Positions 11,584 to 32,519 of a stretch of DNA of 64,000 bases are shown here, piece after piece. Made by a program: the position numbers and the translations under genes. Origin of the DNA: a virus. The DNA is taken from the IMG/VR virus record IMGVR_UViG_3300009503_000020, positions 32,001 to 96,000 of that record; one strand, given 5' to 3'. Numbering within the stretch: position 1 is the stretch's first letter; each line of letters begins with the position of its first letter. The notes beneath the pieces were generated by a model. That model was not told the DNA's origin. It ran no database searches and was given only the letters and a program-made list of their open reading frames with translations.

Positions 11584-13143
11584 ATGGAAGAAGTAAGAGA
11601 CAAGATCCTACGTCAAATAGATGAGTTGGAGAAAACCCTCTTTGGCATGAGAGATGTTATAAAGATCTACATATTAAGCAAGGCTTGTGATTTGACTGTT
11701 CTATTGTTAGGAGCACATGCAACAGCTAAGTCTGCTCTCTCAAGAATGTGGTCAATAACCACTGGTTTGAACTATAGAATAGTAACTAGTTCTGAAGTCG
11801 ATGAAAGTTTGATTGCCTACATTGACCCTGCAGTCTTTAGAGAGAAGAACATTGTTCAAATGAGGCGAGGAGAACTTATGGAGAAGAACCACATCATAGT
11901 TGATGAATACTTTTTATGGCTTAACAAGTATAGAGCTAAGCTGCACCAACTCTTGGAAGAGAAAACATATGCTGGTCTAGATTCGCTTGTTTTCACATAT
12001 ACGTTTCTCTCCAACCCCTTATCAGACTTCTATGCAGGACAGATACCAGAAATTAATATGGCTTCAATTGACAGAATAGACTTATTTGTTCCAGTTAATC
12101 AACCATCAATAGTTCCTGCAGAGACTATGATGAGGAAGTTCTCTAAATATGGTAGAAAAGAAAGACCTCTGTCTCAGATATCTACATGGGAAGATTACTT
12201 GAAGGCTAGAGAGGAAATAATGCAAGTAAAAGTCCCTTCAAAGATAATAATCTGGCTAACGCTGTTTGCTCACTCTATGGCCTCATGCAAACATGTTAAA
12301 GACAAATGGAGCCTCTCTACTGCTAAACTCAAGAAGATGTGTCTCAATTGTAATGAAGTCAATCACTTGTGTAGCAAAGTCTGCCTTTCCAAACCTAGGT
12401 TCTTAAGAGCTACAATTTTACTTTCTAAAGGACTTGCTTGGTTAAATGGAAGAGATACTGTAACATTTCAAGATATCAATGAGGCTATCCTGTACACTCT
12501 TCCTCATAGACTAGCTTGGATACAAGAAGAACTCTCATACTCAGAATCTCTTGAGAAAGTACATGAGCTAGTTCAACAATTTAATGATGACATGCTAGTC
12601 TGGAAGAACAGAGGAGTGTTTTCTCAACTAGCCAAGATAATAGAATCAAGCAAAAGTGTTCCACCTAAGTATGAAGATAAGATAGGCCAAGAACTGAGTG
12701 CAGATGTCTCAGAGATTCACATACTGAAGGAGTTCATTGCTGAAACCTTAAACTCAGTTAAAGAGGATGTTAGTAGTTACTACTTTGTAGAAGCTAGCAA
12801 TAAGACTTACAAGACACTGAAAGAACTACAGGAATTCCTAGAGAAGTCAGGACTTAGTCCTTTTGAAAGAGATGTTCTTGCATTCAAGATAAGTCCTCCT
12901 AACTTGTCTTACATAATTCCAAATAATCCTGAGAACATAGAGAAGTTAATTGACACTCTAATCAACTGGCACACAAGAGAACAAGTAACTATAGATGATA
13001 AGACAATACTTGAGAGGAAGTTCTCCGAAGCAATAATCTTTGACTCAGAACTAGTCAAGATACAAGAAGAAACAGGAAGTGCTAAGTTGCTGTTTCCAGA
13101 TGAGAAGAAAAGGAATGCATTTGTGAAACTGTGGGAGGCATAA
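11584..13143 (+). CDS. MoxR-family AAA+ ATPase, RavA-like
   Basis: Walker A GAHATAKS (the AKS ending is typical of RavA), Walker B IIVDE, IDRIDL. Confidence 0.8.
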   Translation: MEEVRDKILRQIDELEKTLFGMRDVIKIYILSKACDLTVLLLGAHATAKSALSRMWSITTGLNYRIVTSSEVDESLIAYIDPAVFREKNIVQMRRGELMEKNHIIVDEYFLWLNKYRAKLHQLLEEKTYAGLDSLVFTYTFLSNPLSDFYAGQIPEINMASIDRIDLFVPVNQPSIVPAETMMRKFSKYGRKERPLSQISTWEDYLKAREEIMQVKVPSKIIIWLTLFAHSMASCKHVKDKWSLSTAKLKKMCLNCNEVNHLCSKVCLSKPRFLRATILLSKGLAWLNGRDTVTFQDINEAILYTLPHRLAWIQEELSYSESLEKVHELVQQFNDDMLVWKNRGVFSQLAKIIESSKSVPPKYEDKIGQELSADVSEIHILKEFIAETLNSVKEDVSSYYFVEASNKTYKTLKELQEFLEKSGLSPFERDVLAFKISPPNLSYIIPNNPENIEKLIDTLINWHTREQVTIDDKTILERKFSEAIIFDSELVKIQEETGSAKLLFPDEKKRNAFVKLWEA

Positions 13144-13144
13144 C

Positions 13145-13633
13145 ATGTCAACTACTCCTCAAGATATAGAGAAGAAGTTTCCTGAAGTTTATGGCTATTC
13201 TATAAAGAAGGAGAGGAAAGAACAGGTAACCATAAAAGGAATTTCTCTTGAGATAAAGAAGTATACAACTACACTTAAGACAGGTGGAATTAGAGTCTCA
13301 CTTATAGACAACACTAGTGAGTTCTTTCTCAAGTACAATGAGTACCTTGCATCTATAGAGAGTTTTAGACCTGCAGAAGAGAAAGCAATGAACATGTGGT
13401 CTTTCACTACTCTGTGCACAGCAGATCCAAGTCTAGAAGAGATGGGAGGAGCAGGGTTCTATGTGTATCAGAATCACCTTGTGTTCAATGAAGAAGAGAA
13501 GAGTGCTCCTCCTATAGATAGACTTACTAAGTTTATAGAACACTACAAGAAGAAGTTTGGTATTAGAACAAGACTCAAGGAAGATGATTTCTCAGACTTG
13601 GATGTTCTAGAGAGGACAACAGAGAATGAATAA
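13145..13633 (+). CDS. Hypothetical protein in the AAA-vWA operon
   Basis: ORF track; tight coupling on both sides. Confidence 0.65.
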   Translation: MSTTPQDIEKKFPEVYGYSIKKERKEQVTIKGISLEIKKYTTTLKTGGIRVSLIDNTSEFFLKYNEYLASIESFRPAEEKAMNMWSFTTLCTADPSLEEMGGAGFYVYQNHLVFNEEEKSAPPIDRLTKFIEHYKKKFGIRTRLKEDDFSDLDVLERTTENE

Positions 13634-15449
13634 GGAACTAATTACTAAGAAGAATTTCAACAAGATAGCTAAGAGATTAGAGGAACTGCAAGTACGCAGT
13701 TGGAAGATGTCTAGACCTATATTCCCTAAGATGACTCTATACTTCAAAGTATTTCCTATAGAATCATATTTCTCTACTGTAGGTCAGATCTGGTGGGTCA
13801 CACCTTACTGGAGAGGAGATGCTTTTGCTCTCTCTATTTTGTTCCATGAAGGACATCACTGGAACATCTATCCACTAGATATATTTAGAGCTATCAAAGA
13901 TATCTTTGAAGCTAGAAGACTTCTTGCTGAGGAGATAGGATTCGTACCTGAGAAAATCCAGAAGTCTCTTTGGAGAGTAGAAGAAGACTGGAGTCAGTTT
14001 GCATACTCTACAGCTGAACTTCAGTTCGTTGAAAATATTCTCGGAGATTACTGTCTTGAAGGAACGACAAAGATCCTACTCCCTGGTGGTGCAGAAAAAG
14101 AAATCAGAGAGATAAAAGAAGGAGATATAATCCTAGGAGTAAGAAATGGAAAAGTGGTACCTACTCGGGTCTTAGGGATTGGGAAAACTCTTCACACTGA
14201 AATAATTGAATTCAGAGATGGAAAACGCCATTTAGTCACCTCCCCTGAACATAAAATTTTTTCTTATCCAGACTTTCAACTTAAACTAGCAAAAGAGTTT
14301 AATAATGAGAGTGTTTACTATTACTTGGATGATAAACTTGGGCAAAAGAACCTGGACAGAAGAACAGATACAATTCCTGAAGGAAAATTATCCGAAGATG
14401 ACAGCAAAAGAAATAGCAGCAAGACTAGGAAAAACAGTTCACAGTGTTCAAGGCTATGTTTACCTTCACGTAGATACTCTCTCCAAGCGAGAACTCTCAA
14501 GAAAAAGATGCCACCAGATAGTCACTTCATTTACAGAAACGGAGAAAGCTTATATTGCTGGAATTGTCGATGGGGAAGGAACGATTACGATCGTGGGAAA
14601 GAAATATCGACAACCAATGATATCAATATCCAACACTTCTTTCCTTCTCAAAGAATATTTCGAACGACTTGGCTTTCAAACTCGAGTGAAGACAAATTGG
14701 GCAGGAACAGAATACTTCTCACTTTACATAACAGGGCAACACAATATCAGAGAATTCCTAGTTGCTATCAAAGATTACTTAGTAATCAAGAAGGAACATG
14801 CCCAACTCTTGCTGCAGTGGTTAGAACTGAAAGCTCAACAGAAGGTTCATGGCAAAGACACTCCTCAAATGGAGGAACTATTCAAACGCTTGAAACTTTT
14901 GAACTCAAGACATCCACATTTAAGGTTATCAGAAAGAAAAAAACTGATCCAGTAATTCTCTATGATCTAAAAACTTCAACCGGTTCATTCTTTGCTAACA
15001 GGATTCTAGTCCACAATTGTGTGAATTTACATATACATGACAACTATCCTCTAGTGTGGAATGATCTCTGGCATTTCCTCTCAGTTGAAGGTACATTTTA
15101 TGAGAAAGAGAAAGCACTCAAGAGAGACACTACTTTCCTGTTATACTTAGCAGTCTATCCAGAGCTAATTCCAGGTTTAGAACAGATACCAGTCAAAGAG
15201 AAAGTTTCTGAAGAGAAGATACCTAAGATAGCTCACATTGTTAAACTATGTAAAGAAGGAAGGATTTCTACTCCCTATGCTATTAAAGAGCTAGCTAAGT
15301 TATTCCATGACAATATCCAACAGGATCTCAAAGAAGCAGAAGGAGAAGGGAAAGAAGGAGATTTCAAATGCCCCAAATGCCACTCAGATGAAGGGTGGGA
15401 GATAGTCTCATACTTTGATGAACAGAAAGGAAAGTGGTTAGATGTCTGA
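13626..15449 (+). CDS. vWA-associated zincin metallopeptidase (DUF2201 N-terminal-like), intein-containing precursor; 285 aa after splicing
   Basis: LFHEGHH; the spliced junction restores N.LGDY-CVN, matching the N.A.D..IN motif; ends with CPKC. Confidence 0.75.
   Translation: MNKELITKKNFNKIAKRLEELQVRSWKMSRPIFPKMTLYFKVFPIESYFSTVGQIWWVTPYWRGDAFALSILFHEGHHWNIYPLDIFRAIKDIFEARRLLAEEIGFVPEKIQKSLWRVEEDWSQFAYSTAELQFVENILGDYCLEGTTKILLPGGAEKEIREIKEGDIILGVRNGKVVPTRVLGIGKTLHTEIIEFRDGKRHLVTSPEHKIFSYPDFQLKLAKEFNNESVYYYLDDKLGQKNLDRRTDTIPEGKLSEDDSKRNSSKTRKNSSQCSRLCLPSRRYSLQARTLKKKMPPDSHFIYRNGESLYCWNCRWGRNDYDRGKEISTTNDINIQHFFPSQRIFRTTWLSNSSEDKLGRNRILLTLHNRATQYQRIPSCYQRLLSNQEGTCPTLAAVVRTESSTEGSWQRHSSNGGTIQTLETFELKTSTFKVIRKKKTDPVILYDLKTSTGSFFANRILVHNCVNLHIHDNYPLVWNDLWHFLSVEGTFYEKEKALKRDTTFLLYLAVYPELIPGLEQIPVKEKVSEEKIPKIAHIVKLCKEGRISTPYAIKELAKLFHDNIQQDLKEAEGEGKEGDFKCPKCHSDEGWEIVSYFDEQKGKWLDV
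14052..15017 (+). mobile_element. Intein 1 (322 aa); Hint halves joined by an overprinted linker
   Basis: Block A CLEGTTKILL, block B LVTSPEHKIF, block F ILYDLKT, block G FFANRILVHN, +1 Cys. Confidence 0.93.
14305..14955 (+). CDS. Single-motif LAGLIDADG homing endonuclease with N-terminal HTH, in the +1 frame inside intein 1 (start 14305 or 14329)
   Basis: WTEEQIQFLKENY..MTAKEIAARLGKT HTH; AYIAGIVDGEGTI LAGLIDADG helix; ISISNT; YL.IKKEHA. Confidence 0.9.
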   Translation: MRVFTITWMINLGKRTWTEEQIQFLKENYPKMTAKEIAARLGKTVHSVQGYVYLHVDTLSKRELSRKRCHQIVTSFTETEKAYIAGIVDGEGTITIVGKKYRQPMISISNTSFLLKEYFERLGFQTRVKTNWAGTEYFSLYITGQHNIREFLVAIKDYLVIKKEHAQLLLQWLELKAQQKVHGKDTPQMEELFKRLKLLNSRHPHLRLSERKKLIQ

Positions 15450-15615
15450 AGAGTTTGAGTTCATTACTGAATGTCCCAAGTGTAAGCAGATAGTAACTGT
15501 AAGACGCATATTCTCTAAAGCAAAGTGTCCCTACTGTGGGTATAAGTTTGAACCAAAGATGCTAGCTGCAAGGAAAGCTTTCAACCCGTCTCTAAGGAGG
15601 AAAGAGAATGTCTAG
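15442..15615 (+). CDS. 57-aa Zn-ribbon protein (not in ORF track)
   Basis: Manual translation MSEEFEFITECPKCKQ...KCPYCGYKF...FNPSLRRKENV. Confidence 0.7.
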   Translation: MSEEFEFITECPKCKQIVTVRRIFSKAKCPYCGYKFEPKMLAARKAFNPSLRRKENV

Positions 15616-15844
15616 AACATCTCTGAAATGTCCTAAATGTGGCTATCCTTTAAAGCCTCAAATCAGAACTAGATTAGGAGATCCTTTTGAAGTACCATTC
15701 AGGTGTGAACATTGCAATACAACTTGGATATGGCACAGTTGGCAAGAATACTATGAGAGTTGTTTCTTTGAAGATCTAGTTAGATTTGTGACTAAGAATT
15801 TTAATCCATCAATAAAGGGGAGTACTTTAAAACATGAAAGTTAG
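15608..15844 (+). CDS. Zn-ribbon protein
   Basis: CPKC...CEHC; SD AGGAGG. Confidence 0.7.
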   Translation: MSRTSLKCPKCGYPLKPQIRTRLGDPFEVPFRCEHCNTTWIWHSWQEYYESCFFEDLVRFVTKNFNPSIKGSTLKHES

Positions 15845-16826
15845 AATAAAATGCAAGAACTGTGGTTACACTTGGGAAACTGATTTGCAACTTAGTCCAC
15901 TTGGGAGTCTTAAACCAGGCAAGAAAGGACCACTCTCAAGAATCAAGATAGACAAAGGCTCTCTAGATAAAATACTTGACATTGCTGCAGGAGCTTCTAG
16001 AGATGACCTAGAGAAATTAGGATTAGAGATAGACATAGAGGAATGGGAAGATGCTGTGGAGAGGCTAGCTCTTAGGAAATTCCTTCTTGAAAATTTAAGA
16101 GTATGTAGAGAAAAGAAACAGAAAACAGGAGAGAAGTATGTAGTAGGTACTGAACCGTTTGTTATGGGAGATAGTTTCAAGGATGTTGACATCCCGTCAA
16201 GTGAAGTGAAGAGTCTTGGTGTAGAAGACTTGAGAATGATACCAGGAGTTACTCTCCAAAAGAAGGTATATAGTATAACAAGAGGAAGAGATGAAGAAGA
16301 GCTAAAAGGTATTAAGTGCTTTGTGATTATAGATGGTAGTGGATCTATGATAACTGGGAAAGGACTCACATTCTCTGGAGGCAAGATAGGCAAAGCTCTC
16401 CTAATAGGGAAAGAGATCTATGAGATAACTAAGAAATTTGGATTTGATTATCAGCTTGCACTCTTCTCTGATGCAGGTGTGAGAGTGCCAAAGGAGAAAC
16501 TTAGAGAGTTCTGGGCTGATGCTAGTGAGAGAGCTAACTACAGGATATGGAATGGAGGTACAAGATTACAACGAGGCTTGGAACAGTTTACTGAGCAAGA
16601 ATACAGGGATGCTAACTTGATAGTTATCTCAGACATGGACTTAGGAGACTTCCAAGAAACTAAAGATGAGATCCTTAAGATATCTAAACTAACAAATAGC
16701 TTCAAGATAATTATAATAGAGACTCAAGACATAGACTTAGTTGAAAGAGAGAAGCAAGTGCGTGAGATATTTCCACCTGAAGCTCAATTGCAGATAATGG
16801 TAATACCTTTATCTGAAGGAAGTTAA
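15834..16826 (+). CDS. von Willebrand factor A (vWA) domain protein
   Basis: MIDAS IIDGSGS, NGGT, LIVISD; N-terminal CKNC. Confidence 0.85.
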   Translation: MKVRIKCKNCGYTWETDLQLSPLGSLKPGKKGPLSRIKIDKGSLDKILDIAAGASRDDLEKLGLEIDIEEWEDAVERLALRKFLLENLRVCREKKQKTGEKYVVGTEPFVMGDSFKDVDIPSSEVKSLGVEDLRMIPGVTLQKKVYSITRGRDEEELKGIKCFVIIDGSGSMITGKGLTFSGGKIGKALLIGKEIYEITKKFGFDYQLALFSDAGVRVPKEKLREFWADASERANYRIWNGGTRLQRGLEQFTEQEYRDANLIVISDMDLGDFQETKDEILKISKLTNSFKIIIIETQDIDLVEREKQVREIFPPEAQLQIMVIPLSEGS

Positions 16827-18337: not shown

Positions 18338-19891
18338 ATGCAGACTTTAATTCATTCAGGAGTGTATTTACCAACATATAATCCAATAGGTCTGACAATC
18401 AAGTTCAAAGGAAAAGAGATAGAACTAGAGCCTGAAGCAGAGTGCATGGCAATTGCTTTTGCTAAGAAATTTGATACACCATACTTAAATGATAATGTGT
18501 TTGTTACCAACTTCCTTCTAGACTTCTCTACCAAGCTAGGAATAGAGAAAGAAGATGGTTGTTTAGACTTAAAGAACTATGACTTTGAAGCTATCAAAAA
18601 ATACTTAGAAGAGACAAAAGCTAAGACAGAGGGTATGACTAAAGAAGAGAAGAAATTAGCTACTACTTTAAAGAAACAACTAAGAGAGCAACTGAAAGAA
18701 AAATATGGATATGCCTTAGTAGATGGAGTGAAGACTCCTGTAATGAATTGGGCAGTTGAACCTCCCTCGATATTTATGAGCAAAGGAAAGAACCCTCTCA
18801 GAGGACACTGGAAGAGAGCAATACGCAAAGAAGAGATTATACTTAATTCCTCTCAACCAATGGAAGGTTGGAATACAGTCTGGGAACCTAATGAGTTGTG
18901 GATAGCTAAATGGAAGGATGTCTTTGACCCTACTCGTTGGAAGTATGTCTGGTTGTCACCTGCCTCTCAGCTTAGACAAGAAAGAGAAAAGAAGAAGTTT
19001 GAAAAGGCAGAGAACTTAGCTAAGAATATTAAGAAACTAGAAGTATTCATAGACAAAGAACTGAAGAGTCCAGATGTAACTAGGAGAAAGCTAGCTACTG
19101 TATGTTGGTTAATGAAGAATTTAGGTATTCGAGTCGGAGATGAACGTATCGCAGGAGAACGTGGCACACTTGGTTGTACTACTCTCAAGGCAGAGAATGT
19201 CAAACTAGGTAAAGATGGTACAGTTTATCTAGACTTCACAGGCAAAGATTATGTTCATTGGATGAAGTCTTTCAAGCCACCAGAACAAGTCTACAAGAAC
19301 TTACAAGAGTTCAAAGAAACAGCTAAGGATGACTTTCTCTTTAAAGGACTTGACTCCAACAAAGTTTCTCGCTTCCTCAGAGAAGTCTTGCCTGGGATGT
19401 CAGCTAAGGTCTTCAGAACTTATCTAGCAGGAACAGTGTGGGATGAGAATGCTAAGGAGCATCTCAAGCTAGTAGATGGAAGAACTTCACTCCCTGTTAG
19501 ACTTTACCTGTTTAAGATGACTAACTTAGCAGTAGCCAAAACATTAAACCATAGAAGAGCCTTACCAAAGAATTACCAAGAGAGAATTGCTAAGAAAGAA
19601 GAACAACTAAAGAAGGAAACAGCTAAGCTAGAATCCTTGAAAGAAGCTCCTGAGTCTAAACTACTAAAACAACAGAGGAAGGCAGAGAAAATAGCTTGTG
19701 AGTTAAATCTCTTGAAAGAGACAGCAGAGTGGAACCTGAACACTAGTCTGACTAGTTATATTTCCCCTAAGAAGACACTCTACTTCTGCAAGAAAGCTGG
19801 ACTTAAACCAGAACAGATATATTCCAAGAGTCTCCAAGAGAAGTTTAGTTGGATAATTAAGAGGGATGAGGACGATACAGAGGAGAGCTGA
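18338..19891 (+). CDS. top1: DNA topoisomerase IB, eukaryote/TACK-like large form
   Basis: Catalytic pentad motifs IRVG, FTGKD, AKVFRTY, LNH, TSLTSY; coiled-coil linker; N-terminal TLIHSGV. Confidence 0.93.
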   Translation: MQTLIHSGVYLPTYNPIGLTIKFKGKEIELEPEAECMAIAFAKKFDTPYLNDNVFVTNFLLDFSTKLGIEKEDGCLDLKNYDFEAIKKYLEETKAKTEGMTKEEKKLATTLKKQLREQLKEKYGYALVDGVKTPVMNWAVEPPSIFMSKGKNPLRGHWKRAIRKEEIILNSSQPMEGWNTVWEPNELWIAKWKDVFDPTRWKYVWLSPASQLRQEREKKKFEKAENLAKNIKKLEVFIDKELKSPDVTRRKLATVCWLMKNLGIRVGDERIAGERGTLGCTTLKAENVKLGKDGTVYLDFTGKDYVHWMKSFKPPEQVYKNLQEFKETAKDDFLFKGLDSNKVSRFLREVLPGMSAKVFRTYLAGTVWDENAKEHLKLVDGRTSLPVRLYLFKMTNLAVAKTLNHRRALPKNYQERIAKKEEQLKKETAKLESLKEAPESKLLKQQRKAEKIACELNLLKETAEWNLNTSLTSYISPKKTLYFCKKAGLKPEQIYSKSLQEKFSWIIKRDEDDTEES

Positions 19892-30545: not shown

Positions 30546-32519
30546 ATGGAAGCTTTGCAGGTATTAAGCAAGAAAGAGATTATGGAATTAAAGAAGAAAA
30601 TAGAACCTATAAAGAAACTAGCTCTGCATGACGATGCAGATGGTGTAACTTCTGCAGTACTTATGTCTTATGTGTTTAAGATAAACAAAGTATGGGCTCC
30701 AGATGACTTTGGAGAGTGGCCTGTTGCTCCTTATAAAGTTCAAGGGCAAGAACAACTAGAGCTTCCACCAGATGTTTGTGTGGATATGGTACCAGCTAAT
30801 CCTGAATGGGTTGGTTTAGCAATAGACCACCATCCAAATCACCCTCCTGAAGGAAAGAGAAGTTACCAGCTTATCTATGGAGAAGCACCTGCTTCTGTTA
30901 TTGTCTATACTCTCTTTAAAGAATTAATTCCACAAGAACATAGATGGAAAGTAGTAGTTGGCTGCCTGTCCAAGGACACGGAAATACTTACTCCAAGTGG
31001 GCAAATTGAAATCAAAGATCTTAATACTTTGGATTCTGGAATAGGTCTAGATGAACATGGAAAGCTTTGTAAAAATTTACTGTTTACAATACCTAAAGGA
31101 CGGAAAGAACTGCTGCGAATCACTACCAGAAAGAGAGAGATATTAGTAACTCCTGAGCATAGGCTGTTTACACAAAGAGGTCTTGTTGAAGCAAAGGACT
31201 TAAATATTGGAGACTACTTGGTGGTATACTTGAGGAGTTTAGATGACTTCTCAAAGAAAGTTAGAAGCAAACAGGAAGAATTTAGAGAAAGCACGCCAAG
31301 TCTTAAAACTATTAAGCGGAAATCCCAGCTGGAAGAGCTGGTGGCTTGGGAGAGTGAAAGCATCAATTACAGAAGAGAAAAGACAGAAGCTCAGAGAAGC
31401 AGCTATGAAGAATGGAACAAGAGAACGAATTCTTCTTCACAATCTCAGTCATCGAGAGACGAGAATGTGCCCAATATGTGGGAAAGAGTTTACGGTAAAG
31501 AAATCTTCAAGAAAGAAATATTGCTCAATGAGATGCTCAGGCAAAGCAAACTTGAAGAACCTTGGCAAATATACAGGTTCACACAGTGGGCGAGAAAACC
31601 CAAATTGGAAAGGTGGAACTTCAGCCAAGCCATATCATTGGGAAATGAAGAAAAAAGAATGGAGAAACCTTTTGTATCAGAAGGTCGGGTACAAATGTCA
31701 ACTTTGTGGCAACAAAGGCAAACTCAACATTCATCACATAAACAGAGACAAGATGGATGGAAGGCCAGAGAATTTGCTTATACTCTGCCCAAGTTGTCAT
31801 TTAAAAGTTCACAAATTGGTTTGGAAAGGATTGAAAGCATAGACTATGAGGGCAGAGAAGAAGTATTTGACATACACTGGGCCTCTACCAACAATTTCTT
31901 CTTAGCTAATGGAATTCTTTCCCACAATTGCGTTGGAGACGGACAACCAGAACTTATACCTCCAGAGATATGGAGAGAATTTCCTATCTTACTGGAAGAG
32001 TCTGTTACTCCAAGAGAGAGATATGGAAAGCTAGAGACTTCTAATTATCCTCTGTATTTAAGATTAAGTTCAGGCATCAATGCAGTATGTAAGATACCTG
32101 AGAAATGGTACGTAGGATATGCTATATTACGCAATGCAAAGTCACCTTGGGATCTAATCAATGATTCCTCTCTTAAGTCTGCTAAAGAACTTGTTGAGAG
32201 TGAAAGAGAAAGGATCTACAGGGAGACAAGTCCCATACAACTCAGAAATGGAATAAGAGTCTGGGCGTTCCAGTCTGAGACCAAGATAGAGAGAACTCTA
32301 GCTTGGGAAATGTGGGATACTGACAAACGCACTATTGTAGCTATAAACTCTGCTACTGGAAGAGGTAGCATAAGAGGTACATTAGCTACTTTAGTGTATG
32401 AGCATTTGACTGCTCATGGTTTCAAGGCAAGTGGACATCCAGGGTTTGGAGGTTTAAAACTTAAACCTGACCAGACTTGGGAGGATGTGTACCACTGTCT
32501 TGCAAATCTAAAGATTTAA
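30546..32519 (+). CDS. DHH-family phosphoesterase (RecJ/GAN-like), intein-containing precursor; 335 aa after splicing
   Basis: HDDADG, VD, IDHH; spliced motif VVG-CVGD; DHHA1-like GSIRG and GHPGFGG. Confidence 0.85.
   Translation: MEALQVLSKKEIMELKKKIEPIKKLALHDDADGVTSAVLMSYVFKINKVWAPDDFGEWPVAPYKVQGQEQLELPPDVCVDMVPANPEWVGLAIDHHPNHPPEGKRSYQLIYGEAPASVIVYTLFKELIPQEHRWKVVVGCLSKDTEILTPSGQIEIKDLNTLDSGIGLDEHGKLCKNLLFTIPKGRKELLRITTRKREILVTPEHRLFTQRGLVEAKDLNIGDYLVVYLRSLDDFSKKVRSKQEEFRESTPSLKTIKRKSQLEELVAWESESINYRREKTEAQRSSYEEWNKRTNSSSQSQSSRDENVPNMWERVYGKEIFKKEILLNEMLRQSKLEEPWQIYRFTQWARKPKLERWNFSQAISLGNEEKRMEKPFVSEGRVQMSTLWQQRQTQHSSHKQRQDGWKAREFAYTLPKLSFKSSQIGLERIESIDYEGREEVFDIHWASTNNFFLANGILSHNCVGDGQPELIPPEIWREFPILLEESVTPRERYGKLETSNYPLYLRLSSGINAVCKIPEKWYVGYAILRNAKSPWDLINDSSLKSAKELVESERERIYRETSPIQLRNGIRVWAFQSETKIERTLAWEMWDTDKRTIVAINSATGRGSIRGTLATLVYEHLTAHGFKASGHPGFGGLKLKPDQTWEDVYHCLANLKI
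30963..31928 (+). mobile_element. Intein 2 (322 aa); Hint halves joined by an overprinted linker
   Basis: Block A CLSKDTEILT, block B ILVTPEHRLFT, block F EEVFDI, block G FFLANGILSHN, +1 Cys. Confidence 0.95.
31243..31842 (+). CDS. HNH homing endonuclease with Zn finger, in the +1 frame inside intein 2
   Basis: SD GAGGAG before ATG; CPICGKEF..KYCSMRC; NPNWKGG; CQLCG..LNIHHINRD..D...NLLILCPSCH..VH. Confidence 0.92.
   Translation: MTSQRKLEANRKNLEKARQVLKLLSGNPSWKSWWLGRVKASITEEKRQKLREAAMKNGTRERILLHNLSHRETRMCPICGKEFTVKKSSRKKYCSMRCSGKANLKNLGKYTGSHSGRENPNWKGGTSAKPYHWEMKKKEWRNLLYQKVGYKCQLCGNKGKLNIHHINRDKMDGRPENLLILCPSCHLKVHKLVWKGLKA

Follow-up and report, generated by a model that had tools for sequence, protein, structure and literature searches.

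Introduction

Inteins whose homing endonuclease is encoded outside the intein reading frame have been described before. In the cyanobacterial dnaX intein a LAGLIDADG ORF overlaps the intein on the same strand and out of frame (Phillips, DeSimone and Gogarten, bioRxiv 10.64898/2026.09.14.751524), and that preprint credits the proposal of this layout to Gorbalenya 1998. Non-canonical inteins of actinobacteriophages carry their nuclease out of the intein frame, and what the intein frame encodes there is unstructured (Gosselin, Arsenault and Gogarten, bioRxiv 10.1101/2025.01.02.630785), the authors arguing that a free-standing nuclease gene invaded the intein and that mobility continues. An earlier note on the DNA analysed here had mentioned alternative-frame endonucleases from actinobacteriophage inteins; these are real, and the literature on them is wider, as the two preprints illustrate.

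The present locus lies in a 64,000-nt stretch of the IMG/VR record IMGVR_UViG_3300009503_000020 (record positions 32,001 to 96,000), hereafter the window, to which all positions refer. With the dnaX intein it shares a contiguous intein, a disordered in-frame middle, a same-strand LAGLIDADG ORF and a Shine-Dalgarno (SD)-like motif, as well as a low dN/dS of the nuclease frame beside a high one of the intein frame, and the coexistence of occupied and intein-free alleles in one population. It differs in the host gene, which is a bacterial chromosomal clamp-loader gene for dnaX and a viral zincin-like gene, of a probable archaeal virus, in the window. The window nuclease has an N-terminal helix-turn-helix (HTH) and one LAGLIDADG motif, the dnaX nuclease being compared by its description and not by sequence, and the window-type composite spans four host-gene contexts.

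An out-of-frame nuclease and an unstructured in-frame stretch are shared with the actinobacteriophage inteins; there, however, the nuclease gene found on the same strand is endonuclease VII-like and in 'frame 3', the LAGLIDADG and Vsr cases are antisense, and the inteins sit in bacteriophage genes for terminase, polymerase, minor capsid protein and thymidylate synthase. Fractured genes (Dassa et al. 2009, as cited in the actinobacteriophage preprint) also carry a free-standing-type nuclease gene at the intein nuclease slot, but with the intein and its host gene broken into two ORFs, whereas the window locus is one uninterrupted ORF. ShiLan-type HNH insertions in phage methylase genes (Arsenault et al. 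2025, PMC11855218) resemble the window in their overprinted, out-of-frame nuclease and open host frame; they have no splicing domain, while the window nuclease gene is enclosed by a complete Hint domain. The layout is therefore already known and of a rare kind (Gorbalenya 1998; Gosselin 2025; Phillips 2026). What is new is the nuclease family, the host genes, the hot-spring virus, probably an archaeal one, and another +1 intein, with an HNH gene, in the same 120.7-kb genome.

A class-1 intein in a zincin-like viral gene

The host gene and its parts are as follows.

13626..15449, + strand: host gene, encoding a 607-aa precursor of a 285-aa HExxH (HEGHH) protein (ORF list, intein-free homologues)
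13626..14051, + strand: N-extein, last residues ...ENILGDY (aligned with the intein-free alleles L001, L157 and L158)
14052..15017, + strand: class-1 intein, 322 codons (splicing residues; AF2 and Foldseek Hint fold)
14052..14339, + strand: N-terminal Hint lobe, intein residues 1-96 (pLDDT above 90; Foldseek Hint matches)
14340..14888, + strand: in-frame linker, intein residues 97-279 (183 residues), stop-free and predicted disordered (pLDDT 31-38)
14889..15017, + strand: C-terminal Hint lobe, intein residues 280-322, with blocks F and G (AF2, pLDDT above 90)
15018..15449, + strand: C-extein, first residue Cys+1 (TGT 15018-15020), a Leu in intein-free alleles

The insert in the host ORF, CLEGTT...ILVHN/C, is 966 nt long and carries the class-1 residues Cys1 (TGT 14052), S64-P-E-H67 in block B, Asp305 and Thr308 in block F, and His321-Asn322 in block G (15012-15017). 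The nucleophile pair is present, with TGT at 14052 (Cys1) and TGT at 15018 (Cys+1). Among 13 related inteins C1, T308, H321 and N322 are invariant and H67 nearly so. The AF2 model is confident at residues 1-96 and 280-322 only, and its Foldseek matches are Hedgehog Hint, BIL2 (TM 0.79 on target, with both lobes spanned) and the Mtu RecA and gp41-1 mini-inteins. Pfam Intein_splicing (PF14890) was found in the intein frame at E 7.6e-5, its 23.0 bits lying below the cut-off of 35.8; the relatives L008, L014, L016 and L018 reach 42-50 bits. The linker is Ser/Arg/Thr-rich (S 12.6%, R 11.5%). The earlier note had described intact Hint blocks A, B, F and G with a Cys+1 around a nonsense middle, and both descriptions held, the class-1 residues being found at 14052-15020. 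These sequence features strongly support a host gene that would be read through the whole 966-nt insert, with every class-1 splicing residue held by the two predicted Hint lobes.

The host gene lies in a MoxR-like AAA / zincin / VWA cluster, with neighbours carrying AAA_lid_2/bpMoxR and VWA_CoxE. It was likened to the DUF2201_N zincins because of its HExxH, an N-I-x-x-D-Y-x-I-N motif and the MoxR/VWA neighbours. A search of an intein-free homologue for PF13203 (DUF2201_N) gave no Pfam match at E below 0.1, and hhalign of the host family against DUF2201 exteins gave E 0.063, in the HExxH region only; assignment to DUF2201_N was hence dropped. By this resemblance only, the host gene may work like a DUF2201_N zincin, outside formal membership of that family. 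Among 5.8 billion proteins no close relative of the 607-aa precursor was found. The virus is probably an archaeal, hot-spring one; the archaeal host assignment stays tentative, because the MoxR-like neighbour had no match among GenBank phages and the window PolB is only 24-27% identical to those of haloarchaeal tailed viruses.

A nuclease gene overprinted in the +1 frame

Within the intein the +1 frame contains the following features.

14293..14297, + strand: weak Shine-Dalgarno-like AAGAG, 7 nt 5' of the ATG at 14305 (motif inspection)
14305..14955, + strand: homing endonuclease gene, +1 frame, 216 aa (ORF list, Pfam, AF2)
14344..14472, + strand: HTH DNA-binding module, nuclease residues about 14-56 (PHROG and GcrA-like matches; three AF2 helices)
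14536..14835, + strand: single LAGLIDADG core, nuclease residues 78-177 (Pfam, AF2, conservation)

The nuclease ORF overlaps intein codons 85-302, has a second possible ATG at 14329 and is preceded by a stop of its own frame at 14287. ORF, Pfam and AF2 evidence all agreed with the initial description of an HTH plus single-motif LAGLIDADG protein with its own ATG (14305 or 14329) and stop (14955). Pfam LAGLIDADG_3 (PF14528) matched one such stretch only, at 24.4 bits (cut-off 22.5), and the motif itself, YIAGIVDGEGT, is found at 14551-14583. In 23 homologues D89 is invariant, E91 nearly invariant and K162 invariant or nearly so, and in many of them the HTH unit is repeated. To the AF2 model (pLDDT 86.5) DSSP assigns the succession H78-91, E, E, H, E, E, H of the alpha-beta-beta-alpha-beta-beta-alpha core; in a Foldseek comparison of this model with PDB structures, I-MsoI and I-CreI ranked first (E 6e-7 to 2e-6, TM 0.65-0.69 on target). 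No relative of the nuclease above about 37% identity was found in protein collections, IMG/VR or JGI metagenome contigs.

As in I-CreI, I-MsoI and I-CvuI, there is one motif per chain, and the predicted dimer interface runs through the LAGLIDADG helix; unlike the window nuclease, these three enzymes are encoded by group I introns and have no N-terminal HTH, and identity to them is 15-23%. The homodimer model scored 0.79, against 0.26 for the best of 3 controls, a mark reached by 20 of 30 proteins whose structures are pairs of one chain and by 1 of 23 with single-chain structures. Contact agreement between runs was 100%, the partner pLDDT was at least 88 and the interface was formed by helix 78-91. 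This modelled pairing may stem from memorised solved I-CreI dimers.

A GGAG/GAGG-type motif stands upstream of 40 of the 56 window genes, compared with AAGAG before the nuclease ATG. At the place of AAGAG the relatives have GGGG or GGAGG, formed by a conserved Hint Gly codon; an ATG near the frame start was found in all of them, and in many a G-rich motif stands 7-10 nt before it. No RNA sequencing run containing the window stretch was found.

Selection on the two reading frames

Over the 322 intein codons the third frame contains 31 stops and the intein frame none. Stops in the intein frame all need a T at the nuclease wobble position, so that synonymous choice can keep this frame open almost free of cost. 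Indeed, none of the 59 nuclease codons before AA/AG/GA codons ends in T, against 46/156 elsewhere in the nuclease ORF, and T before at-risk codons is likewise absent from all 17 related loci tested. For this nuclease protein and the codon usage of the window, the exact P of an open intein frame is 2.6e-9, and none of 5000 synonymous permutations was stop-free (mean 9.5 stops). The intein frame is therefore kept open by selection, and this stop avoidance implies that the zero frame is read.

At the protein level the two frames differ. In 8 pairs of related loci the nuclease frame had a dN/dS of 0.20-0.30, the intein frame one of 0.9-1.9. Population variants of the window intein alter 2 nuclease residues, conservatively, and 7 intein-frame residues; one of them, CTC TCA to CTG AGC, leaves Leu-Ser of the nuclease unchanged. 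Selection on both frames, as first suggested, was thus borne out for their being kept open, while protein-level selection acts on the nuclease frame only: across the linker, whose apparent dN/dS is 0.9-1.9, the intein frame is selected only for the absence of stops. The same dN/dS of 0.20-0.30 and the catalytic residues of the 23 homologues answer the question of whether the +1 ORF is conserved, which it is.

Relatives with the same layout

A nuclease in the +1 frame of an intein was found at no fewer than 18 other distinct metagenomic loci, independently assembled and ranging in GC from 36% to 63%, with nucleases only 25-35% identical. Their host genes are DUF2201_N/DUF2201 (zincin-VWA), GT1 glycosyltransferase and DegT genes. 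Relative to the intein end, the nuclease stops as early as 33 codons before and as late as 3 codons after, the stop of locus L007 falling past the intein end. Free-standing members of the family (L162-L164 and L031) are full-length proteins that begin and end like the nested nucleases. Outside this +1 intein family, weaker LAGLIDADG matches (L038, L040, L049) lie antisense to long ORFs, that of L040 being a capsid protein.

An ordinary in-frame intein nuclease masked by two compensating assembly or sequencing indels would give the same appearance, and the a priori rarity of the layout is all that speaks for it. In contigs of runs X2, X3 and X4, from three other samples and studies, positions 14195-15030 are covered with 0-10 substitutions and no indel, as the earlier note had asked to be checked. 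The +1 layout is common to the 18 independently assembled loci, the nuclease frame has an ATG and a stop of its own, the stop of L007 is irreconcilable with any indel pair, and stop avoidance shows the zero frame in use; an artefact is effectively refuted.

Alternatively, ribosomes might shift to +1 near 14300 and back near 14955, producing a canonical intein with an in-frame nuclease domain. Both ends of the nuclease ORF do lie near the place between blocks B and F where canonical intein nucleases are inserted. Under such recoding, however, the zero frame would need no stop avoidance, yet it is strongly selected to be stop-free in 18 of 18 sequences; moreover, an ATG is present near the beginning of the nuclease frame in each relative and is often preceded by a G-rich SD-like motif, the nuclease end varies among relatives as given above, an informal look noticed no common slippery motif, and the free-standing members are whole proteins with unchanged ends. 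We consider recoding very improbable, and a nuclease made from its own internal start is the reading we retain.

On sequence grounds, the Hint lobes and the +1 nuclease appear to form an old unit that occurs in four host-gene contexts and has probably moved between host genes. Since this composite is common to at least 18 other loci, it would have reached the window virus ready-made, and the independent capture of the nuclease proposed in the earlier note did not take place in this virus; the composite is older.

Empty alleles, recent arrival and mobility

The search for intein-free alleles returned 42 clusters of intein-free homologues (280-300 aa) against one occupied allele. At the insertion site L157, L158 and L001 read GDY-L(V/I)N with no gap, and L157 and L158 are 97-98% identical in DNA to the window genome over 12.5 kb. 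The empty-site sequence of L157 is ...GGAGATTAT^CTAGTTAAC..., and the spliced-window junction reads GGAGATTAC/TGTGTGAAT. Compared with the 98%-identical empty allele, substitutions cluster at the junction on either side of the intein.

14036..14051, + strand: junction substitution cluster, upstream part, 3 synonymous changes
15018..15073, + strand: junction substitution cluster, downstream part, 12 mismatches within the first 50 nt (elsewhere about 1 per 50 nt)

The downstream changes include Leu to Cys, Thr-Trp to Leu-His and Arg to His. These junction-proximal substitutions could partly reflect post-insertion adaptation or target immunity instead of co-conversion. No pseudo-palindrome was found at the empty site, where the best half-site match was 6/11, like shuffles (P 0.9), a result uninformative on the cleavage site. 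A sediment metagenome (run X3) contains both alleles, the empty one at about 106x and intein pieces at 4.7x.

The intein contains 17 CpG in 966 nt (obs/exp 0.49), the number counted by eye in the earlier note, compared with 5.2 per kb (0.15) for the window as a whole and 1.9 per kb for polB; this is 3.4x the genome level (Poisson P 1e-5). The second intein of the same genome, with its unrelated +1 HNH gene, also shows elevated CpG, and the raised CpG could come partly from dual-coding constraint and not from recency. The recent arrival first suggested from CpG is nevertheless supported, by the 98%-identical empty-site sister as well as by the CpG level: the intein reached this hot-spring virus lineage recently.

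In the homing-cycle model of inteins, nucleases decay once the intein is fixed. The +1 ORF might accordingly be inactive here, surviving as a relic in decay or serving as a DNA-binding or maturase-like protein, leaving a de facto mini-intein with a junk linker. The weak start signal, the non-palindromic target and the decay that the cycle predicts after fixation would suit such a state. The ORF, however, is intact with D89, E91 and K162 conserved, and the within-lineage variants spare the nuclease protein. Fixation does not apply either, because the intein is rare (1/43 clusters) and the minority allele in run X3. The 98%-identical empty sister points, in addition, to a recent invasion, for which the donor needed an active nuclease. 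Loss of activity is thus unlikely, and we favour a nuclease that still serves mobility.

Proposed mechanism and implications

We propose, with a probability of roughly 0.85, that the locus is a mobile, non-canonical dual-coding intein which splices, has its +1 nuclease made by an internal start and homes into empty alleles. The Hint lobes would come together in one fold, cut out the intein and join the exteins into the 285-aa host protein. Ribosomes translating the same mRNA would restart in the +1 frame at ATG 14305, behind the weak AAGAG, or at ATG 14329, and yield the 216-aa HTH plus single-motif LAGLIDADG protein, predicted to pair as an I-CreI-type homodimer. The nuclease would then cut the empty allele of co-infecting related viruses, and recombinational repair would copy the intein together with a short flanking extein stretch.

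A broader reading, to which we give even odds, is that Hint lobes, +1 nuclease and Gly-codon start signal make up an old mobile module, the HTH-LAGLIDADG +1 intein, which is complete in itself and has repeatedly moved among viral genes unrelated to each other (DUF2201 zincins, GT1, DegT and the zincin-like gene of the window) and across the divide between bacterial and archaeal viruses, the window copy being an invasion in progress. The +1 phase would be favoured because nuclease wobble positions can avoid every intein-frame stop. Were this broader reading true, homing of an overprinted intein would be directly testable in a natural hot-spring virus population.

For annotation, the layout means that gene callers overlook the nuclease or split the host gene. 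Thermostable meganucleases of single-chain size with an added HTH may be of interest to enzyme engineers. Occupied and empty genomes that are 98% identical, one metagenome with both and a second, unrelated +1 HNH intein provide a natural experiment for homing and co-conversion. The dual-coding intein layout extends to a probable archaeal virus, and an entire family of nucleases with an HTH and a single LAGLIDADG motif is found overprinted in at least four kinds of viral genes. That the layout has been retained through divergence to 25-35% identity supports the view of inteins and nucleases as separable partners, joined here by overprinting and not by domain fusion.

Intein and overlapping nuclease ORF

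The viral record containing the window (its bases 32001–96000) is 120,717 bp in length and carries direct terminal repeats. An earlier note on this DNA had described an intein whose LAGLIDADG nuclease is a separate gene overprinted in the +1 frame. Its coordinates were re-derived and every statement that it made on the sequence was found correct:

13626–15449, + strand: host-gene precursor ORF, 607 aa (ORF list)
14052–15017, + strand: intein, precursor residues 143–464, starting with CLEGTTKILL and ending with ILVHN, followed by Cys
14305–14955, + strand: nuclease ORF in the +1 frame, 216 aa, with a second ATG at 14329 and a preceding in-frame stop at 14287

In the intein frame, Intein_splicing was matched under the Pfam cut-off (E 7.6e-5), and the complete set of class-1 splicing residues was found by sequence analysis. 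The +1 product matched LAGLIDADG_3 over the cut-off, as well as a GcrA-like HTH, and, in PHROGs, homing-nuclease and HTH-regulator families. The nuclease catalytic residues are present: within the motif IAGIVDGEG, D89 is invariant and E91 nearly invariant in the homologue alignment, where K162 is also invariant. These matches, together with the stop avoidance and the layout of the relatives reported below, support a separate LAGLIDADG gene in the +1 frame.

Selection on both reading frames

As the nuclease lies in the +1 frame, a stop in the intein frame requires a T at a nuclease wobble position followed by a codon beginning with AA, AG or GA. The third frame holds 31 stops in 966 nt versus none in the intein frame, and T precedes 0/59 at-risk codons of the nuclease gene versus 46/156 of the others. 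Given the nuclease protein and the codon usage of the window, an open intein frame has an exact probability of 2.6e-9; each of 5000 within-gene synonymous permutations contained at least one stop (mean 9.5 stops). Such avoidance is far from chance, thus indicating that the intein frame is read and kept open. No T was found before at-risk codons in any related locus tested, despite a locus GC ranging from 36% to 63%. In the eight alignable pairs, dN/dS was 0.20–0.30 for the nuclease frame and 0.9–1.9 for the intein frame. Judging from these sequences, both frames are open and each is under a different kind of selection, in agreement with the selection on both frames proposed in the earlier note.

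The intein-frame linkers of 13 loci have in common an R-(R/W)-R-G "shadow" motif (columns ~203–207 of the intein-frame alignment A2, ~ residues 170–175 of the window intein), which results from reading the LAGLIDADG motif GIVDGEG one base early and which a profile search could misread as intein-frame conservation.

Predicted structures

The +1 product was modelled by AlphaFold2, with a 23-homologue alignment, at a mean pLDDT of 86.5, as a three-helix HTH (residues 19–56), one alpha-beta-beta-alpha-beta-beta-alpha LAGLIDADG core (78–158) and C-terminal helices. In the PDB, the closest structures are those of I-MsoI, I-CreI and I-CvuI (E 6e-7 to 2e-6), intron enzymes that act as homodimers. A two-copy model of residues 72–205 scored 0.79 versus 0.26 for the best control, a pass that may show likeness only, because I-CreI-type dimers are already solved; the mark applied was reached by 20/30 proteins solved as one-chain pairs and by 1/23 solved as single chains. 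The runs share 100% of contacts, partner pLDDT is at least 88 and the predicted interface is the LAGLIDADG helix.

In the in-frame intein model, built with 13 related inteins, pLDDT exceeded 90 only at residues 1–96 and 280–322, and residues 97–279 were left without secondary structure (pLDDT 31–38). The confident parts match Hint folds, namely Hedgehog, BIL2 (over both lobes, TM 0.79) and the RecA and gp41-1 mini-inteins. By these lobe bounds, the nuclease ORF also extends over about 12 structured residues of the N-terminal Hint lobe and about 22 of the C-terminal one.

Host gene, virus and a second intein

The extein family carries HExxH and, where the intein is inserted, an invariant N..DY..N motif; the host gene has a MoxR-like AAA gene on one side and a VWA gene on the other. 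The cluster at 11584–16826 comprises a MoxR-like AAA ATPase, an unknown gene of 162 aa, the host gene with its HExxH, two small genes for zinc ribbons and a VWA protein, and has the appearance of the intein-carrying DUF2201 zincin-VWA proteins in split form. DUF2201_N zincins resemble the host gene, and their related inteins lie two codons upstream; homology between the two was not established by profile tests (Pfam search and profile-profile alignment).

The virus is, tentatively, probably archaeal, because of a eukaryote-type topoisomerase IB, the affinity of its PolB (nearest to haloarchaeal tailed viruses, 24–27% identity) and one host-gene homologue binned with an Archaeoglobaceae MAG. 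The topoisomerase (18338–19891) is full-length, with Topoisom_I_N, Topoisom_I and Topo_C_assoc, and also occurs in the 98%-identical sister contigs.

A second intein lies in an ORF that the earlier note took to be RecJ/DHH-like:

30546–32519: ORF of 657 aa
30963–31928: second intein
31243–31842: HNH ORF in the +1 frame, 199 aa, with GAGGAG before its ATG

Intein_splicing was matched with 59 bits and the Pfam HNH match of the +1 gene is over cut-off; T is found at 0/77 at-risk junctions versus 42/121 elsewhere.

Relatives of the nuclease

Distant homologues of the nuclease numbered 3355 at E up to 0.001 and 365 at E up to 1e-10. Comparison loci were drawn from IMG/VR, GTDB genomes and assemblies, and each was tested for a second frame open across the nuclease gene. 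Besides the window, 18 distinct loci (L002, L003/L004, L005–L014, L016–L018, L026, L160, L161) have the nuclease in the +1 frame of a 340–1040-codon open frame, and all 13 IMG/VR matches covering the HTH belong to loci of this layout. The open frames are inteins (C1 ... HN/C or HN/S), and their host genes are of three kinds:

DUF2201_N/DUF2201 zincin-VWA genes: at N-I-A|C-D-Y-A-I-N, with a second site in L008
GT1 glycosyltransferases: at E-A-Q-A|C-G, with a second site in L018
DegT aminotransferase

Nuclease identity between groups of loci is only 17–36%. In an unrooted tree the window nuclease groups with those that are DUF2201-associated or free-standing (support 96/96), and the GT1/DegT nucleases stand apart from it. 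The Hint domain and the nuclease of L008 both rank among the nearest to their window counterparts. Free-standing members include L162–L164 and a gene of L031. The +1 layout is, from these comparisons, a conserved trait of this HTH + LAGLIDADG nuclease family.

In all loci the nuclease ATG follows closely behind block B, and in many it is preceded by GGGG or GGAGG, built from the Gly codon of the conserved Hint 'GF/GW' motif. The start signal of the window copy is weakened (AAGAG, 7 nt before the ATG), with a GGAG/GAGG-type motif in 40/56 window genes. The position of the nuclease stop varies between 33 codons before and 3 codons past the end of the intein. Programmed frameshifting into and out of the nuclease frame, which could also join the two frames, is very improbable given this conserved ATG, the variable stop and a zero frame selected to stay open.

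In the 72%-identical sister virus L031 (IMGVR_UViG_3300031999_007842), the free-standing HTH + LAGLIDADG gene (2279–2818, 179 aa, motif YIAGIVDGEGT) lies between two genes, ~10 kb from the intein-free host-gene copy. In L007 (2209–3127), the nuclease ORF continues across Hint blocks F and G to a stop located 3 codons inside the C-extein, structured protein being encoded by both frames across the whole C-terminal lobe. The DUF2201 intein of L009 (2305–4077) has an open frame starting inside the N-terminal Hint lobe, with N-extein and first ~35 intein residues absent upstream in frame, and may be a fractured gene, the product of a rearrangement or a misassembly. Weaker LAGLIDADG matches in L040 (1553–3007), L038 and L049 are antisense to long open frames, that of L040 matching Phage_capsid_4, and possibly correspond to the antisense layout reported for actinophage capsid inteins.

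Empty alleles and recent arrival

A search for intein-free alleles retrieved 42 clusters of host-protein homologues (280–300 aa), and the protein homologue search found no close relative of the 607-aa precursor at its own length. L157 and L158, contigs from two other samples, share 97–98% DNA identity with the window across 12.5 kb, and precisely 14052–15017 is missing from both. The sequence is GGAGATTAT^CTAGTTAAC at the empty site and GGAGATTAC/TGTGTGAAT in the spliced window. Compared with the empty allele, the 16 nt upstream of the junction contain 3 synonymous changes, and the first 50 nt downstream 12 mismatches versus ~1 per 50 nt elsewhere, the changes including Leu to Cys at +1. Co-conversion of flanking extein in homing, perhaps together with target immunity, is expected to leave such a cluster.

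Metagenomes that contain the stretch come from hot springs and sediment. Three runs from other samples yielded contigs that span most of the intein, showing 0–10 substitutions and no indels; with these independent contigs and the 18 parallel loci, it is hardly conceivable that the layout is an assembly or sequencing error. In run X3, two empty-site variants (window 14050/15033), TCTAGTTAACACATGG at ~79x and TCTTGTGAACACATGG at ~27x, are found beside intein pieces at 4.7x; the second has GTG, as in the occupied allele, and could be a resistant or recombinant target. Variants of X3 and of another run, X4, change 2 nuclease positions each, the X3 changes altering 7 intein-frame residues. A four-base variant (CTC TCA to CTG AGC) leaves Leu-Ser of the nuclease unchanged and replaces Leu-Lys by Glu-Gln in the intein frame.

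The window copy of the +1 ORF is unlikely to be dead or a non-nuclease, since D89, E91 and K162 are kept, these variants spare the nuclease protein, and intein-free clusters are many and intein pieces few beside the empty alleles of X3.

The CpG count given in the earlier note was confirmed (17 per 966 nt, obs/exp 0.49, versus an obs/exp of 0.15 in the window and 0.06 in polB). CpG is strongly depleted window-wide, with both inteins being CpG-richer islands (0.49 and 0.30). Recent arrival, also put forward in that note, is supported by the near-identical contigs without the intein and by the coexistence of both alleles in X3, where polymorphism would be ongoing.

Discussion

The observation is confirmed and its interpretation supported. 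The precursor would splice by docking of the Hint lobes across a 183-residue disordered linker; the Synechocystis DnaX intein, whose layout is now known to equal that of the window intein, reportedly splices in E. coli. The nuclease would be produced by internal initiation on the host-gene mRNA and, as a homodimer aided by its HTH, would act on the empty allele during co-infection, into which repair would then copy the intein.

The overprinted-nuclease layout is already known, albeit recently recognised. The proposal of nucleases lying out of the intein frame goes back to Gorbalenya (1998). Actinophage inteins with LAGLIDADG and Vsr genes in antisense, and with an EndoVII-like gene on the same strand, were described in 2025 (bioRxiv 10.1101/2025.01.02.630785), and a same-strand overlapping LAGLIDADG ORF in a cyanobacterial dnaX intein in 2026 (bioRxiv 10.64898/2026.09.14.751524), which resembles the window intein in frame-specific dN/dS and coexisting alleles. 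What is new is a family of HTH + single-motif nucleases living in the +1 frame within DUF2201, GT1, DegT and the zincin-like gene of the window, its setting in a hot-spring virus that is tentatively and probably archaeal, a natural pair of occupied and empty alleles, and a second intein of the same genome with an unrelated HNH gene in +1.
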